Below, piece after piece: positions 3,595 through 8,840 of a stretch of DNA of 39,474 nucleotides. The position numbers and the translations under genes were made by a program. The stretch's first letter is position 1; each line of letters starts with the position of its first letter. The notes beneath the pieces are model-generated. The model saw nothing but the letters and a program-made list of their open reading frames with translations. It was not told the origin of the DNA and did no database searches. Source of the DNA: a phage; the sequence record PZ618369.1. One strand, 5' to 3'.

Positions 3595-3602
3595 TTCTGA
3601 CT

Positions 3603-3621
3603 TAACTATCACTATAGGACT
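3603..3621 (+). promoter_or_regulatory. phage RNAP promoter upstream of gene 1 (TTAACTATCACTATAGGAC), +1 G near 3617
   Basis: matches the window's own promoter consensus. Confidence 0.6.
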
Positions 3622-3691
3622 CAAGGTCTAAGACTCCAAGTGAAAGACCAAAGAGACTTTAAGTGAAAGACTAATAACAAGGACTTTAAGT

Positions 3692-6373
3692 ATGAGCGTC
3701 ATCTCTATTGACAAACACGACTTCTCTGACGTGTCGAATGCCATTGAGCCATTTAACCTGCTGGCTGACCACTACGGGCAAGACCTTGCAGTCAAGCAGC
3801 TTCAGCTTGAGCATGAGGCATACACTGAAGGCGAGCGACGTTTCATCAAGAACCTTGAGCGCCAGACTGAGCGCGGGGAACTGGCAGACAATCAGGTCGC
3901 CAAGCCTTTGATGCAGACTCTGGTCCCTAAGATTGCGCAAGCCGTCAAGGAGTGGCACGAAGGAAAAGACGGGAAGCTGTCAACCTCTCGCCCAAGCGTA
4001 GCGTTTACCATGCTGAGCACTGATGAGAAGGCTGTCAAAGACCGCTCTCTGCTCATCTCCTGTGGGTCTGCTGCGGTTATCATACTGAAGGTCATCCTCT
4101 CCAAGCTGGTCAAGCCTGAAGGGATACCGATTACACCGATGGCCTCAGCGATAGGCCGCACACTTGAAGATGAAATCCGCTTCGGTCGCATTCGTGACAA
4201 GGAGCGGGAGCACTTCAAGAAGGCGATAGCTGAGAACCTGAACAAGCGAGCCGGGGCATCCTACAAGAAAGCCTACATGCAAGCGGTTGAAACCTCCATG
4301 CTGGAGCAGGGTCAACTGGAAGATGCGTGGGGAAATTGGAGTCCTACCGAGGCGGTACACGTTGGCATCAAGATGCTTGAGATTGTCATCCAGTCTACAC
4401 AACTTGTCGAGCTTAAGCGTTATGGTGCTGGCAATGCATCGGCTGACGTTGAGATGGTCCACCTGTCAGACTTCTGGGTAAAGAAGATGGCACAACGTGG
4501 ATTCAGCCTCGCGGGTATCGCGCCAGTATATCAACCTTGCGTAGTACCACCTAAGCCGTGGACTGGTGTCGTGGGTGGTGGGTATTGGGCCAAAGGTCGC
4601 AGACCGTTGCCGCTGATTCGATTAGGGTCTAAGTCTGCGGTGGCACGTTACGAAGACGTGTACATGCCTGAAGTCTACGACGCTGTGAACATCATTCAGA
4701 ATACACCTTGGAAAGTGAACAAGAAGGTTCTGGACGTGGTGAACATGGTCGAGAAGCTGAACAACACACCTATTAAAGACATCCCGCAAATGGAACCACT
4801 GAAGCCTGAGGACTATGCAGGTGAGACTGAAGAGGAACTCAAGGCATGGAAGAAAGCTGCTGCTGGTATCTATCGTCGCGAGAAGGCCCGAAAGTCACGC
4901 AGATTGTCACTGAGCTTTATCGTTAACCAAGCGAACAAGTTTTCTCAGTTTAAGGCCATCTGGTTTCCGTACAACATGGATTGGCGAGGTCGCGTCTACG
5001 CTGTACCGATGTTCAACCCTCAGGGTAACGACATGCAAAAAGGCCTCCTGACTCTTGCGGTCGGCAAGCCTATTGGTTCCGATGGCTTCAAATGGCTGAA
5101 GGTACACGGTGCAAACTGTGCGGGTGTAGATAAAGTAACCTTCGAGGAGCGCATTAAGTGGGTGGAAGACAACCATGACAACATCATGGCTACCGCTAAA
5201 GCACCGATGGATAGCATTGAGTGGTGGGGCAAGTTAGGCTCCCCGTTCTGCTTCCTTGCGTTCTGCTTCGAGTATGCTGGCGTAATGCATCACGGATTGT
5301 CTTACTCATGCTCGCTGCCGATAGCGTTCGATGGGTCATGCTCTGGGATTCAGCACTTCAGCGCGATGCTTCGTGACCACATCGGTGGACATGCAGTAAA
5401 CCTGACGCCTTCCGGTAAGGTCCAAGACATCTACCGCATCGTGTCTGACCGCATTGAGGAGGAACTTAAAGTCCTGCTGGTTAACGGTACGGACAACGAG
5501 ATGGTGACTCAAGAGGACAAGAAAACAGGTGAGATTACCGAGCGTCTTAAGCTGGGGACACGAGAGCTTGCGCGCCAGTGGCTTACCTATGGTATGTCAC
5601 GAGAGGTCACTAAGCGTTCGGTCATGACTCTGGCATACGGGTCGAAAGAGTATGGATTCGCAGACCAAGTGTACGAGGATATCGTGATGCCAGCGATTGA
5701 CTCAGGGTCTGGCGCTATGTTCACCGAGCCAAGCCAAGCATCTCGCTTCATGGCTAAGATGATTTGGGAAGCTGTTAGTGTGACCGTAGTTGCTGCGGTT
5801 GATGCGATGAAGTGGCTTCAAGGTGCTGCCAAGCTGCTGGCTGCTGAAGTGAGTGACAAGAAGACAGGCGAAATCCTGAAGCCGTGCCTTCCTGTACATT
5901 GGGTCACACCCGATGGTTTCCCGGTCTGGCAGGAATACCGAAAGAAAGATACCACTCGTCTGAACCTGATGTTCTTAGGGTCATTCAACCTTCAGCCTAC
6001 CGTCAACAGAGGCACGAAGAAAGAGTTGGACAAGCACAAGCAGGAGTCAGGCATTAGCCCGAACTTCGTCCACTCACAAGATGGTAGCCACCTCCGCAAG
6101 ACTGTAGTCCACACGCACCGCAAGTATGGCGTGATGTCCTTCGCAGTGATTCACGATAGCTTCGGGACCATCCCGGCTGACGCTGAGTATCTGTTCCGTG
6201 GCGTCCGTGAGACGATGGTAGAGACCTACCGCGACAACGATGTGCTGCTTGACTTCTACGAGCAGTTTGAATACCAGCTTCACGAGAGCCAGCGCGACAA
6301 GTTGCCTGAGCTTCCGAAGAAAGGTAAACTGAATATCGAAGACATCTTGTCTTCAGACTTTGCATTTGCTTAA
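3692..6373 (+). CDS. 1: DNA-directed RNA polymerase, single subunit (893 aa)
   Basis: palm motifs and C-terminus ...HDSFGTIPADA...ILSSDFAFA match recalled T7 RNAP; size and position. Confidence 0.97.
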   Translation: MSVISIDKHDFSDVSNAIEPFNLLADHYGQDLAVKQLQLEHEAYTEGERRFIKNLERQTERGELADNQVAKPLMQTLVPKIAQAVKEWHEGKDGKLSTSRPSVAFTMLSTDEKAVKDRSLLISCGSAAVIILKVILSKLVKPEGIPITPMASAIGRTLEDEIRFGRIRDKEREHFKKAIAENLNKRAGASYKKAYMQAVETSMLEQGQLEDAWGNWSPTEAVHVGIKMLEIVIQSTQLVELKRYGAGNASADVEMVHLSDFWVKKMAQRGFSLAGIAPVYQPCVVPPKPWTGVVGGGYWAKGRRPLPLIRLGSKSAVARYEDVYMPEVYDAVNIIQNTPWKVNKKVLDVVNMVEKLNNTPIKDIPQMEPLKPEDYAGETEEELKAWKKAAAGIYRREKARKSRRLSLSFIVNQANKFSQFKAIWFPYNMDWRGRVYAVPMFNPQGNDMQKGLLTLAVGKPIGSDGFKWLKVHGANCAGVDKVTFEERIKWVEDNHDNIMATAKAPMDSIEWWGKLGSPFCFLAFCFEYAGVMHHGLSYSCSLPIAFDGSCSGIQHFSAMLRDHIGGHAVNLTPSGKVQDIYRIVSDRIEEELKVLLVNGTDNEMVTQEDKKTGEITERLKLGTRELARQWLTYGMSREVTKRSVMTLAYGSKEYGFADQVYEDIVMPAIDSGSGAMFTEPSQASRFMAKMIWEAVSVTVVAAVDAMKWLQGAAKLLAAEVSDKKTGEILKPCLPVHWVTPDGFPVWQEYRKKDTTRLNLMFLGSFNLQPTVNRGTKKELDKHKQESGISPNFVHSQDGSHLRKTVVHTHRKYGVMSFAVIHDSFGTIPADAEYLFRGVRETMVETYRDNDVLLDFYEQFEYQLHESQRDKLPELPKKGKLNIEDILSSDFAFA

Positions 6374-6385
6374 CAGGAGATAGTT

Positions 6386-6586
6386 ATGAAATTTGCACAC
6401 AAGCAGACTGGCGTTAATGGTGGGACTCAAATCGTGACCGTAACAGAACACAACGGGAAGGGTCTGGTGAAGACCACGGTCATCCCCACCGAGATGTCAA
6501 AGCAGCTTAACGTCCCGTTCAAGTGGCTGGTTAAGCAGGTTGAGCAGACACACGAGCAAGCTCTTAAAGAGGCGGCAACCAAATGA
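6386..6586 (+). CDS. hypothetical protein (66 aa), gene 1.05 region
   Basis: ORF track; lies between gene 1 and the phi1.1-type promoter where T7 has no gene. Confidence 0.55.
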   Translation: MKFAHKQTGVNGGTQIVTVTEHNGKGLVKTTVIPTEMSKQLNVPFKWLVKQVEQTHEQALKEAATK

Positions 6587-6660
6587 CAGACCTACAGTTA
6601 CTGGCCCTGTGGCTGGGAGCACTAGCAGTATTCACTCTAATCCAACGCAGAAGAGGTTAA
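6583..6660 (+). CDS. possible small hydrophobic peptide (25 aa)
   Basis: hand translation MTDLQLLALWLGALAVFTLIQRRRG; ATGA overlap with preceding ORF; very short, speculative. Confidence 0.2.
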   Translation: MTDLQLLALWLGALAVFTLIQRRRG

Positions 6661-6664
6661 CCCT

Positions 6665-7144
6665 ATGTTTGGTAAGTCAAAACTCAAAGCACAAATCAAA
6701 GAGTTGAGCATGAAGGCGGCATACTTGGAGCGAGTAGTAATAGTCATGGATAAGGACAACGAGAGGCTGAAGGTTAAACTTGCTGAATCAGAGCGTAAGC
6801 GCCTAACACCACCAGCGGCTGTATTTAGCAAGCGTATGGTAGGCATCAAGTTCAAGGCACTGTTCAACGGGATGTACCAACCGACTGAGTTCAAGACTGG
6901 ACCGGGTAACTGCGGTAAGAACGTTAAGCACTTCACAACATCGAAGACTGAGCGCACTATTACCATTCACCAGCACCACGTAGACGGGTCTCAGAAAGAC
7001 TTTGAGTATCGACTGAGCGACATCGACGGTCGAATCCAGTATGACTACGAGCTGGTTAAGGTCTATGGTGAGGAGGCTGAACAGGAACGTATAAACCAAG
7101 TCTTCCGCAACAGACAGCGCTTACACCCTAAACTATCACTATAG
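6665..7144 (+). CDS. hypothetical protein (159 aa), heptad-like charged N-terminus (possible coiled coil)
   Basis: ORF track; stop codon TAG lies inside the following promoter (CACTATAGG). Confidence 0.55.
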   Translation: MFGKSKLKAQIKELSMKAAYLERVVIVMDKDNERLKVKLAESERKRLTPPAAVFSKRMVGIKFKALFNGMYQPTEFKTGPGNCGKNVKHFTTSKTERTITIHQHHVDGSQKDFEYRLSDIDGRIQYDYELVKVYGEEAEQERINQVFRNRQRLHPKLSL

Positions 7145-7148
7145 GATT
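7129..7148 (+). promoter_or_regulatory. phage RNAP promoter (phi1.1-type), TAAACTATCACTATAGGA, +1 G near 7144
   Basis: consensus match. Confidence 0.75.
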
Positions 7149-7190
7149 AGACTCAAGGTCATGACTAAAGTCGTGGCCTTCATGATTAAC
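7148..7190 (+). promoter_or_regulatory. conserved hairpin element AGACTCAAGGTCAT...GTGGCCTT(C/T)ATG, candidate RNase III site
   Basis: stem AAGGTCA/TGGCCTT with one G-U pair; the same element recurs at 14217 and 36872; resembles the AAGGTC...GTGGCCTTAGTCAT motif of T7 RNase III sites as recalled. Confidence 0.5.
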
Positions 7191-7220
7191 CCTAACGTAA
7201 ACTACTGGAGATTCAACCAT

Positions 7221-7400
7221 ATGTATCAGAACACTATCAACTTCGAGCGCATCCGTGAACGTCAGAAGACTGAAGGTTATATTCCGAAGGGACGCAAGCT
7301 GAACAAGACCAAGCGTGGCGGTGGTGTCAAGGGAGCTTTCCGTAATGCTGAGGGTAAAGACTCTCTGGTAAACCAAGAGAAGTATTTCGTAGGAGCGTAA
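7221..7400 (+). CDS. 1.1: gp1.1-like small basic protein (59 aa)
   Basis: KGRKLNKTKR matches recalled T7 gp1.1 (TKGRKLNKTKRDRSHKR); start taken at the ATG downstream of the hairpin rather than the ORF-track start at 7161. Confidence 0.6.
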   Translation: MYQNTINFERIRERQKTEGYIPKGRKLNKTKRGGGVKGAFRNAEGKDSLVNQEKYFVGA

Positions 7401-7402
7401 AC

Positions 7403-7690
7403 ATGAGCATGTTCTCAAGAGCGCATAGCGGCAACCTGAACACTCTTCGTACAGCCATCCACAACTGGCAGACCGAGACGGACTACAATGCAGAGGTCAG
7501 CACTTGGTTTGACCAAGTGATGCACAGGACTTGTATCAAAGCTGTAATAGTCCACGTTCACACACGAGAGGTCCTCATTGAGAAGGACTTCACGGAGTAC
7601 CCGAATATCCACGACGAAGATGTGCAGACCGTAGCGGTTGCCACTTGGTTTAACAAACAGTTCAACGACTACACTGGTCGATTCCTTTAA
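7403..7690 (+). CDS. 1.2: gp1.2-like protein (putative host dGTPase inhibitor)
   Basis: position immediately before the ligase gene; N-terminal HSGNL resembles T7 gp1.2 YSGNL (weak). Confidence 0.6.
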   Translation: MSMFSRAHSGNLNTLRTAIHNWQTETDYNAEVSTWFDQVMHRTCIKAVIVHVHTREVLIEKDFTEYPNIHDEDVQTVAVATWFNKQFNDYTGRFL

Positions 7691-7707: not shown

Positions 7708-8793
7708 ATGATAACTATTAAAACTAACCCGCACCGCGCTGTAGATTACTCTGAGTCTGGCGTTAAGAAGGCTCTGGAAGCTGCCGGGTCGCTGGAAGCT
7801 GAAGTGAAGTACGATGGTGTCCGGTTGAATCTTCTGGTCTTCCCTACTGGTGAGACTCAATGGTTGAGTCGTGAGTCTAAACCTCTCCCAGCTCTTGAGT
7901 GGCTGTCAGTCCTTACCAACATCGACAACATCGTTGATGACCAGCAAAAAGCTAGCGACTGGCGGTGGTTCCTTAAGCAGGCGGGCTACGAAGGCATGGG
8001 CCTGATGATTGATGGTGAGGTCATGGTTCCTGCAACCGACTTCAACACTTCCTCAGGTCTAGTCCGTACCATGTGGTCAGACACTAAGAACTACGCTTGG
8101 AATGGCAACCCAGATGCTGACATCGACACCAAGAAGAAGCATAAGGTCCCTTTCCATCTGGCAACCGACCACATCCGCGTGGTTGTCTACGGTATCGTTG
8201 ACCTTAACGTCATCAACGACCCGAAAGCCGAAGGTCCTATCCATAGCGTCACACGCCTGAAGGCCGAAGCTATCGTCCCTCTCCTCCAGAAATACTTCCC
8301 GGAAATCGACTGGGTTCTGTCTGAGTCACACACGGTCTATGACCTTGAGTCGCTCAACTCCCTGTACGAAGAGAAGCGTCTGGAAGGACACGAGGGTCTG
8401 GTAGTCAAGGACCCACTGGGTAAATACAAGCGTGGCAAGAAGTCAGGAATGTGGAAGATGAAGCCTGAGGAGACCATCGACGGGACCGTATGTGGCCTCG
8501 TGTGGGGGACTCCTGGTAAGGCCAACGAAGGCAAGGTCATTGGCTTTGAGGTACTGCTGGAGGACGGCATGGTAGTGAATGCGTGCGGACTGACTGAGGA
8601 GCAGAAGGATGAGTTCACCGCTTCCGTTCTAAACTGGCGTAAGGGGTTATGCTCAAGCACTATTTATGGAAACCCGTTTGCGGGTAATCAGGTGGAAGTC
8701 CTATTCATGGAGCGCTTCCCTGATGGCTCCCTTCGTCATCCCAGCTTCAAGTGCTGGCGTGGAACGGAAGACAATCCAACCGTTAAGAGCTAA
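7708..8793 (+). CDS. 1.3: ATP-dependent DNA ligase (361 aa)
   Basis: KYDGVR adenylation motif; EGHEGLVVKDP, KRGKKSGMWKMKPE and DGSLRHPSF match recalled T7 ligase. Confidence 0.95.
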   Translation: MITIKTNPHRAVDYSESGVKKALEAAGSLEAEVKYDGVRLNLLVFPTGETQWLSRESKPLPALEWLSVLTNIDNIVDDQQKASDWRWFLKQAGYEGMGLMIDGEVMVPATDFNTSSGLVRTMWSDTKNYAWNGNPDADIDTKKKHKVPFHLATDHIRVVVYGIVDLNVINDPKAEGPIHSVTRLKAEAIVPLLQKYFPEIDWVLSESHTVYDLESLNSLYEEKRLEGHEGLVVKDPLGKYKRGKKSGMWKMKPEETIDGTVCGLVWGTPGKANEGKVIGFEVLLEDGMVVNACGLTEEQKDEFTASVLNWRKGLCSSTIYGNPFAGNQVEVLFMERFPDGSLRHPSFKCWRGTEDNPTVKS

Positions 8794-8804
8794 CTAAACG
8801 TCAA

Positions 8805-8840
8805 CCCAGTGGTCTTCGGACTGCTGGGTTTCTTTGCGTT
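8805..8840 (+). terminator. intrinsic terminator (early terminator TE equivalent)
   Basis: CCCAGTGGTC-TTCG-GACTGCTGGG, a 10-bp stem with two G-U pairs and a UUCG loop, followed by TTTCTTTGCGTTT; located just after the ligase gene as TE is in T7. Confidence 0.7.

Follow-up and report, generated by a model that had tools for sequence, protein, structure and literature searches.

The phage record PZ618369.1 supplies a stretch of 39,474 nucleotides (nt), here called the window, in which we analysed the interval between the RNA polymerase gene (gene 1) and the phi1.1-type promoter (positions 6386–7144). In this interval a T7-like phage of the Kayfunavirus type carries three genuine, closely packed early genes, encoding proteins of 66, 25 and 159 amino acids (aa). 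Profile and sequence matches show the 159-aa protein to be a predicted leucine-zipper-bearing long form of the gene 1.05 product (gp1.05) of phage T3. Public annotation already covers the three genes, the family name and the overlap of the third gene with the promoter; mildly new is only a conserved, under-annotated, predicted membrane micro-protein of 25 aa. The features concerned are as follows.

6386–6586, plus strand: 66-aa early gene of the K1F gp06 / Dev2 'gp1.06' family (PHROG 8082)
6583–6660, plus strand: gene for a predicted 25-aa single-pass membrane micro-protein, MTDLQLLALWLGALAVFTLIQRRRG
6665–7144, plus strand: gene 1.05, long form, 159 aa (Pfam PF25755, PHROG 8103, EcoDS1 homologue)
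7127–7149, plus strand: phi1.1-equivalent phage RNA polymerase promoter, −17 to +6 with +1 at G7144 (consensus copies; annotation of relatives)

The first-pass annotation, made from the letters alone, had listed three open reading frames (ORFs) of these sizes here, and the ORF list places them exactly at the coordinates it gave. That they are more than chance ORFs is borne out by the ratio of non-synonymous to synonymous differences (pN/pS) in related genomes, and each is preceded, 8–11 nt upstream, by a Shine-Dalgarno-like GAGG/AGGAG. Selection ratios throughout are pooled pairwise Nei-Gojobori counts from about 50 related loci taken from GenBank and IMG/VR; a first set comprised 27 loci, and the later, enlarged set was used for the 25-aa ORF. 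The relatives are numerous. Region 6300–7300 finds matches in 220 phage records, nearly all of them T7-supergroup phages (Autographiviridae, Studiervirinae) of the Kayfunavirus type, the closest being Escherichia phage TM1 (92% identity), with EcoDS1 at 88%.

Gene 1.05 in its long form

The identification of the 159-aa protein rests on three agreeing lines. First, it matches Pfam PF25755 (Phage_T3_1_05) with 86.9 bits against a gathering cut-off of 27 (E-value 9e-25), residues 58–128 covering profile positions 2–73 of 73, and it matches PHROG 8103 with an E-value of 1.4e-57. Second, the 90-aa gp1.05 of T3 aligns to residues 57–129 with 36% identity over 73 residues. Third, the EcoDS1 homologue (ACF15788), 83% identical, is annotated as gp1.05, with a promoter annotated over the last bases of its coding sequence. 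The first-pass annotation had set this gene against the gene 1.05 of T3-like phages; it is itself a homologue of that gene. It had also held that homology to a characterised gene 1.05 product with a known function would overturn its account, and here the two halves part: the homology is clear, and a characterised function is found for none of these products in the searchable literature, where they appear only as 'unknown' in genome-announcement tables. Its statement that no function could be assigned therefore stands.

The comparison with T3 and phiYeO3-12 is instructive. The phages share the homologous beta domain and the slot between genes 1 and 1.1, and in all of them the phi1.1-type promoter overlaps the 3′ end of the gene and supplies its stop codon. 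Whereas T3 gp1.05 is a bare domain, the window protein adds a 55-residue zipper helix in front and a 25-residue helix behind; and whereas a dedicated promoter, phi1.05, and the annotated primary origin lie in front of T3 gene 1.05, the window gene lacks such a promoter and has two small genes in that place. Closer to hand, EcoDS1 gp1.05 and its Kayfunavirus homologues (TM1, P762 and the Salmonella ST phages) are 83–92% identical and represent the same gene, alike in three-part architecture, position and annotated promoter overlap and differing merely as alleles.

How the domain is deployed across the family was examined by searching 1.84 billion representative proteins exhaustively with HMMER (E-values up to 1e-3), which returned only 56 clusters. 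Three architectures are seen among 55 cluster representatives: a bare domain of 75–105 aa, as in T3; a coiled coil followed by the domain, of about 150–177 aa, as in the window; and an N-terminal transmembrane (TM) helix followed by coiled coil and domain, of 165–200 aa. The last type includes the gp1.05 of phiSG-JL2 (169 aa), AP10 and SH1, and it occurs in 46 of the 53 loci of a second group of phages (40–41-kb contigs with 186–187-aa proteins), which we infer from tblastn host counts to be Klebsiella Przondovirus-like. These proteins resemble the window's in locus and in having the domain C-terminal to a coiled-coil segment; they differ in carrying the TM helix within the polypeptide and in their longer coiled coil, the window protein having no hydrophobic segment at all (Kyte-Doolittle maximum 0.88). 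A query of the TM type found the family in 608 phage records, mainly T7-like phages, and T3 gp1.05 as a database query returned a single cluster and added nothing. PF25755 is present in all 235 close homologues.

Bare 1.05 domains (78–82 aa, acidic) were also seen outside T7-like genomes, at L110 1194–1442 and L108 371–607. One lies in a Mu-like contig between a Mu gp27-like small terminase and the large terminase, and the other stands among a series of small genes close to a dATP/dGTP pyrophosphohydrolase.

Two apparent connections of the family were discarded. A 2415-aa metagenomic DUF4082/Big-domain surface protein (P0167) gave a borderline phmmer match, at residues about 1167–1201, 1439–1472 and 1914–1944 with the motif VKFRA..G.IT..RFY.G...G..V.HL; it scores about 0 bits against the family profile, and the motif is a chance beta-hairpin resemblance. 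The name 'microtubule-binding protein' carried by the homologues in TM1, yong1 and IME278 is likewise without foundation: the sole Pfam match of the window protein is PF25755, the PDB profile matches are non-significant, and the label presumably stems from coiled-coil noise.

The predicted structure of the window protein falls into three parts.

6671–6805, plus strand: N-terminal leucine-zipper-like helix, residues 3–47 (AlphaFold2, heptad statistics)
6821–7063, plus strand: conserved '1.05' six-stranded beta domain, residues 53–133 (65-sequence alignment, AlphaFold2)
7067–7123, plus strand: C-terminal helix, residues 135–153 (AlphaFold2)

The full-length AlphaFold2 model has a predicted local distance difference test score (pLDDT) of 92.7, and residues 50–135 modelled alone reach 93.5 with a predicted template modelling score of 0.77. 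The model shows a 45-residue helix (pLDDT 97–98 over residues 3–47), a six-stranded antiparallel beta domain whose first and last strands are very long, and the C-terminal helix, which together with the tail has no counterpart in T3-type proteins and is specific to the Kayfunavirus-type long form.

The first-pass annotation had described the first ~45 residues as coiled-coil-like, and both the predicted helix and its heptad register agree. The register runs over six heptads with L7, L14, L21, M28 and L35 at the d positions and I11, A18, V25, N32 and L39 at a. Leu, Ile, Val and Met together occupy 0.62 of the a/d positions and 0.19 of the others, a difference reached by 5% of shuffles for the window allele; six sequence-unrelated alleles from relatives share the register, with 0.05–10% of shuffles reaching their signal. 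GCN4-type parallel leucine zippers offer the obvious comparison: here, too, about six heptads carry Leu or Met at each of five consecutive d positions, and the a positions hold small or beta-branched residues, with a lone buried Asn (Asn32) at one of them. The resemblance is one of pattern only, in a protein modelled here as a single chain; it differs from those zippers in having neither homology to them nor a basic DNA-binding region.

The beta domain is the conserved part. An alignment of 65 diverse members finds G79, C83, V87, Q103, F113, G122 and R123 invariant, all present in the window protein and all of them within or beside the inter-strand loops GxGxCGK, QxHxDG and DxxGR. The family-wide pattern F..G.G.CGK ... 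Q.H.DG..K.F.Y...D..GR is likewise matched by the window protein. The pN/pS is 0.24 for the domain, 0.38 for the tail and, as a rough figure, 0.59 for the N-terminal helix. The helix is moreover mosaic: the flanking DNA is similar between alleles while the helix-coding segment is swapped, and at least five unrelated-looking alleles are found in one register. The fold class of the domain is probably a small beta-barrel. Its weak but recurrent structural neighbours, when it is searched in isolation, are Sm/SH3-like small barrels (Hfq, Gemin6/LSm, SspB, the WYL domains of BrxR/CapW/PafBC/DriD, L19 and Sso7d), which it resembles in being small, all-beta and of similar size. A PDB search with the family profile gave only non-significant coiled-coil matches (keratin, Lpp, ZapB and kinesin stalk; E-values of at least 0.097).

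The gp1.05 cassette and possible functions

Comparison with the gp1.05-less genomes of CR44b and K1F shows the gene to be, at the level of the DNA, an accessory cassette situated between the stop codon of the micro-protein and promoter position −17. Its presence or absence amounts to a 465-bp indel flanked by a 6-bp direct repeat whose copies lie 465 bp apart.

6660–6665, no strand assigned: upstream copy of the repeat ACCCTA, including the final A of the micro-protein's stop codon TAA and the first base of the gp1.05 ATG
7125–7130, no strand assigned: downstream copy of ACCCTA, overlapping promoter positions −17 to −14

The gene is wholly absent from K1F, CR44b and about 19 of the fetched loci, where the promoter follows the micro-protein gene directly. 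The junction in CR44b and K1F reads GGTTAACC(C)TAAACTATCACTATAGG, that is, the 25-aa stop and then the promoter, ...AGAGGTTAACC(C)TAAACTATCACTATAGGATTAG; the window has this string in two separate parts, ...AGAGGTTAACCCTA/TGTTTGG...(gp1.05)...CTTACACCCTA/AACTATCACTATAGG. Deletion between short direct repeats is a classical event in T7 genetics. A nonsense allele is found in an IMG/VR copy of a Citrobacter phage SH3-like genome (L026 1795–2268), in which a single TAT-to-TAG change creates a nonsense codon at position 71 of an otherwise intact gene. The allele may be a knock-out that arose in nature, or else an amber mutation carried along in a suppressor host, and it suggests that gp1.05 is dispensable.

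What might such a protein do? We tentatively suggest that gp1.05 might be a non-essential early host-interaction factor, of the host take-over, anti-defence or exclusion type, oligomerised through its zipper, a possibility to which we give appreciably less than even credence. The zipper would form a parallel dimer or a higher oligomer presenting at least two copies of the beta domain, whose three conserved loops may bind a conserved cytoplasmic partner or ligand; in relatives with the N-terminal TM helix, binding would occur at the inner face of the membrane. Several features point this way: the early position, patchy distribution and natural knock-outs of the gene; the joining of a fast-evolving, mosaic helix to a conserved domain of binding type; membrane anchoring in many relatives; and the recurrence of the domain on its own, as an accessory gene, in phage settings unrelated to this one. 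Those small class I/II proteins of T7 that have been characterised (0.3, 0.4, 0.6, 1.2, 2, 4.5 and 5.5) bind host proteins stoichiometrically. Like gp1.05, these proteins (gp0.3 is Ocr) are small, non-essential, variably present and encoded in the early/class II region; unlike homologues, they share no sequence or structural similarity with it. By this analogy they are most likely the functional class to which gp1.05 would belong.

A number of points weigh against a host-interaction role. No match to gp1.05 was obtained in NCBIfam, in PADLOC (E-values up to 0.1) or, at significance, among PDB sequences, and fold searches gave no significant solved neighbour (best Foldseek E-value against the PDB, 0.17). 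Taken by itself, the window allele has a borderline heptad signal. The pN/pS of the helix is rough since its pS is near saturation (0.64), and the mosaicism of the helix could come from recombination rather than from an arms race.

The main rival holds that gp1.05 is an Sm/SH3-like-barrel nucleic-acid binder acting at the primary replication origin or on an early transcript, with the TM forms perhaps tethering replicating DNA to the membrane. The annotated T3 origin does adjoin gene 1.05, and the fold matches, weak as they are, are Sm-like. However, a uniformly basic domain, looked for as a sign of nucleic-acid binding, had to be rejected: the charge is not conserved, with isoelectric points from 4.6 to 10.1. 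The gene is also absent altogether from K1F and CR44b. We therefore regard this alternative as improbable, though it fares better than those that follow.

The presence of a TM helix in so many relatives raises another alternative, namely that an ancestral protein of TM, coiled-coil and 1.05 parts was split into the 25-aa peptide and the zipper-domain protein, which would still act together, the peptide recruiting gp1.05 to the membrane. The order of the parts is alike, the two ORFs lie only 4 nt apart, the fused form is the commonest architecture in relatives, and the sequences of both the peptide and the fused proteins indicate a positive-inside topology with the C-terminus in the cytoplasm. 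Against this, purifying selection on the peptide is equally strong in loci without gp1.05 (pN/pS 0.18) and with it (0.23). In addition, the peptide aligns with 59 fused TM N-termini no better than composition-preserving shuffles do (fraction reaching the score, 0.15–0.54), the ORFs are in different frames, and none of the 235 close homologues is a fused intermediate. A split gene is thus decidedly unlikely.

Taken as a whole, the account given here, covering the identities, the architecture, the cassette, the expression described below and the host-interaction mechanism, is the best overall explanation, and we judge its prospects of being right in full to be slightly better than even.

The promoter overlap and expression of the three genes

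The promoter consensus, CCTAAACTATCACTATA/GG, was derived from 10–11 copies on the plus strand of the window. Its 14-nt core, CTATCACTATAGGA, occurs in four exact copies and five more with one mismatch, always on the plus strand, and allowing up to three mismatches gives 17 matches against 3.1 expected. The phi1.1-type copy, which is annotated in EcoDS1 and CR44b, carries two stop codons in different frames, TAA at −15 to −13 and TAG at −2 to +1.

As the first-pass annotation had noted, the stop codon of the 159-aa ORF is the TAG within the promoter (7142–7144). It had further described promoter and coding sequence as physically interlocked. The overlap is real, and it is not special to this genome: gp1.05 ends within the 23-bp promoter in every gp1.05-bearing relative examined, and in T3, phiYeO3-12 and phiSG-JL2 the TAA that ends gene 1.05 falls in the opening six bases of promoter phi1.1. 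Among the Kayfunavirus alleles the stop falls at two places. EcoDS1 and most others encode 155/156 aa and stop at the TAA, whereas the window, TM1 and a few others (L009 among them) encode 159 aa and stop at the TAG, because of a 1-nt frame change in the gp1.05 tail; this frame difference is evidently tolerated.

A regulatory reading would have the overlap tie the activity of the promoter to the end of gp1.05 translation or to read-through transcription. The occurrence of the stop within the promoter in every gp1.05-bearing genome examined, T3-type phages included, speaks in its favour. Several facts tell against it. First, the two stop positions lie in different frames. Second, with the gene or without it, the promoter and the roughly 55 nt of leader behind it stay unchanged. 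Third, the promoter read in frame simply gives P-K-L-S-L-stop, which makes up the last ~6 residues of gp1.05 (PKLSL), and unrelated ORFs at other promoter copies end in the same way, as does a K1F ORF at 2624–2701. Fourth, where gp1.05 is missing, the micro-protein stop lies just upstream of the promoter. Compact packing accounts for all four observations. We consider a coupling device very improbable. Since the promoter carries stops in two of three frames, the overlap is a by-product of compact packing; it is generic and no device specific to gp1.05.

Positions 7130–7196 (GGATTAGACTCAAGGTCATGACT(C)AAAGTCGTGGCCTTCATGATTAACCCT), which take in the promoter and the initial ~55 nt of the RNA made from it, do not vary among six Kayfunavirus genomes; the genes on either side are far less conserved. 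The leader contains the following element.

7155–7180, plus strand: 11-bp leader hairpin (RNA fold −19.3 kcal/mol, z = −2.0; sequence nearly invariant in relatives)

In position, and in position only, the hairpin corresponds to the RNase III site R1.1 annotated in T3 and phiSG-JL2. Immediately beyond it, 7185–7196 (ATTAACCCTAAC) resembles the 5′ half of the T3-type promoter consensus (ATTAACCCTCAC...). As a fossil of a T3-type promoter this 12-nt match, found twice in the window against 0.31 expected, is too weak to be retained, and it could be due to chance.

Because transcripts from G7144 exclude gp1.05, the protein must be expressed from upstream, and we infer that the promoter at 7144 serves genes 1.1–1.3 rather than gp1.05. 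The three genes lie upstream of the early terminator (TE, 8803–8830), and no convincing terminator was found between them and it; they would thus be transcribed early by the host RNA polymerase, with read-through from a phage promoter at +1 = 3617 in addition. The latter is a perfect promoter core at 3600–3622, some 75 nt before the start of the RNA polymerase gene, and would allow the phage polymerase to transcribe its own gene together with the three small genes downstream. There is no match to the promoter core from 3606 to 7133, and no promoter consensus between gene 1 and 7127, unlike in T3. Base composition failed to locate a replication origin: the GC content is 0.42–0.51 around the gp1.05 start and 0.42–0.45 past the 7144 start site, with no AT-rich block at either place.

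The upstream genes, their neighbourhood and significance

The 66-aa protein matches PHROG 8082 over its entire length (residues 1–66 on profile positions 1–66 of 66; E-value 3.5e-41), a family listed as of unknown function. Its ORF has a pN/pS of 0.27 across 25 DNA versions, and the protein gave no match in Pfam, NCBIfam, PADLOC or the PDB.

Its stop codon, TGA, overlaps the ATG of the 25-aa ORF as ATGA, and the last codons of that ORF, AGAAGAGGT, double as the Shine-Dalgarno sequence of gp1.05. The 25-aa ORF is called as such in 25 of the 27 loci of the first set; of the remaining two, L012 has it inside a longer ORF starting from an upstream ATG, and for L017 none is shown. The enlarged set recovers it in 48 loci, always with 25 codons. 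Its pN/pS is 0.22–0.23 in frame and 0.96–1.10 for the same DNA in the other two frames, the latter staying at about 1 whether the in-frame value is taken from loci with or without gp1.05. The peptide consists of a hydrophobic span and a C-terminal RRRG cluster, with a maximum mean Kyte-Doolittle value of 2.24 over 17 residues (from residue 4), and its hydrophobicity is kept in all 11 protein variants of the first set. By these criteria the ORF is a predicted, translationally coupled single-pass membrane micro-protein, the membrane assignment coming from hydrophobicity. The peptide has no Pfam family at E-values up to 0.1, DUF2842 included, and no NCBIfam or PADLOC match at the same threshold.

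That the 66-aa and 25-aa ORFs arose by chance in a regulatory or origin spacer, and owe their conservation to a DNA or RNA element, is hardly credible: T7 has no genes here, and the DNA around 6549–6669 is more widely conserved than the 66-aa gene, but purifying selection is frame-specific (0.22–0.27 in frame, about 1 out of frame), variable sites of the 25-aa ORF concentrate at third codon positions (8/6/15), changes conserve hydrophobicity, and the length is constant at 25 codons with an ATGA coupling signal.

The 25-aa gene is rarely annotated, and where it is, as in IMM-002, it appears as DUF2842. The labels 'DUF2842 domain-containing protein' and 'metal resistance protein' on tiny overlapping ORFs, as well as the EcoDS1 label 'gp1.1' on the 71-aa homologue of the 66-aa protein, are unsupported by profile and structure searches. 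Records with unsupported names are MT808983 (TM1), MK610268 (yong1), MW748991 (IME278), EU734172 (EcoDS1) and NC_048071 (IMM-002).

Around the interval the gene order is RNA polymerase, 66-aa ORF, 25-aa ORF, 159-aa ORF, phage promoter, gene 1.1, gene 1.2, ligase and TE.

3692–6373, plus strand: gene 1, T7-type single-subunit RNA polymerase, 893 aa, the left boundary of the interval (ORF list; annotated as RNA polymerase in all relatives)
7221–7400, plus strand: gene 1.1, 59 aa, the right boundary of the interval (Pfam PF08200; annotated with 59 aa in relatives)
7708–8793: ligase gene
8803–8830, plus strand: TE, for host RNA polymerase, a 12-bp stem with a T-rich tail, close behind the ligase gene

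EcoDS1, T3 and phiYeO3-12 have an annotated TE in the equivalent place. For gene 1.1 the program-made ORF is longer (79 aa, 7161–7400), and its ATG sits within the R1.1-like hairpin. Relatives annotate a 59-aa protein from the ATG at 7221, in front of which a GGAG lies at 7208–7211; the 59-aa form is likely the true product and 7221 the true start.

The slot after gene 1.1 (window 7403–7690; equivalents in L001–L051) is an accessory hot spot in its own right, with at least five unrelated alternative genes among relatives: the window's own 95-aa T7 gp1.2-like gene, and genes for proteins of 83 aa (MSKRWLFDAS...), 87 aa (MGRLYSGNLNAF...), 86 aa (MNHYELKDFAK...) and 75 aa (MFEGSLTDQ...). In EcoDS1 and two IMG/VR relatives an extra gene for a 76-aa protein (MSMKLVAHNKAFNDGSGR...) separates the RNA polymerase gene from the 66/71-aa gene and forms a further presence/absence cassette in the interval from RNA polymerase to gene 1.1.

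L001 1590–1820, L023 1261–1491 and L028 1260–1490: 76-aa gene

The finding as a whole is an ordinary one, a catalogued accessory gene in its usual place with a generic promoter overlap. Its modest value lies in correcting annotations, in pointing out a 25-aa gene that is usually missed, and in describing the gene 1.05 family as modular. As the models and alignments present it, the family would be a module deployed as a bare domain, in a zipper-dimerised form or in a membrane-anchored form with zipper, built on a confidently predicted beta fold that has no solved relative. A further-reaching possibility, which we think doubtful in its entirety, is that the 25-aa peptide is an overlooked, independently selected Kayfunavirus membrane micro-protein with an early function of its own (for example membrane priming, exclusion or partnering of gp1.05) and that the gene 1.05 family is a widespread effector module that disables, early in infection, a defence system or some conserved component of the host.

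At the level of genome organisation, the locus illustrates how recombination between short repeats adds or removes accessory genes at the upstream boundary of phage promoters. If gp1.05 were indeed a host take-over or anti-defence factor, it would have practical relevance for hundreds of therapeutic-candidate phages of Klebsiella, Salmonella, Escherichia and Yersinia.

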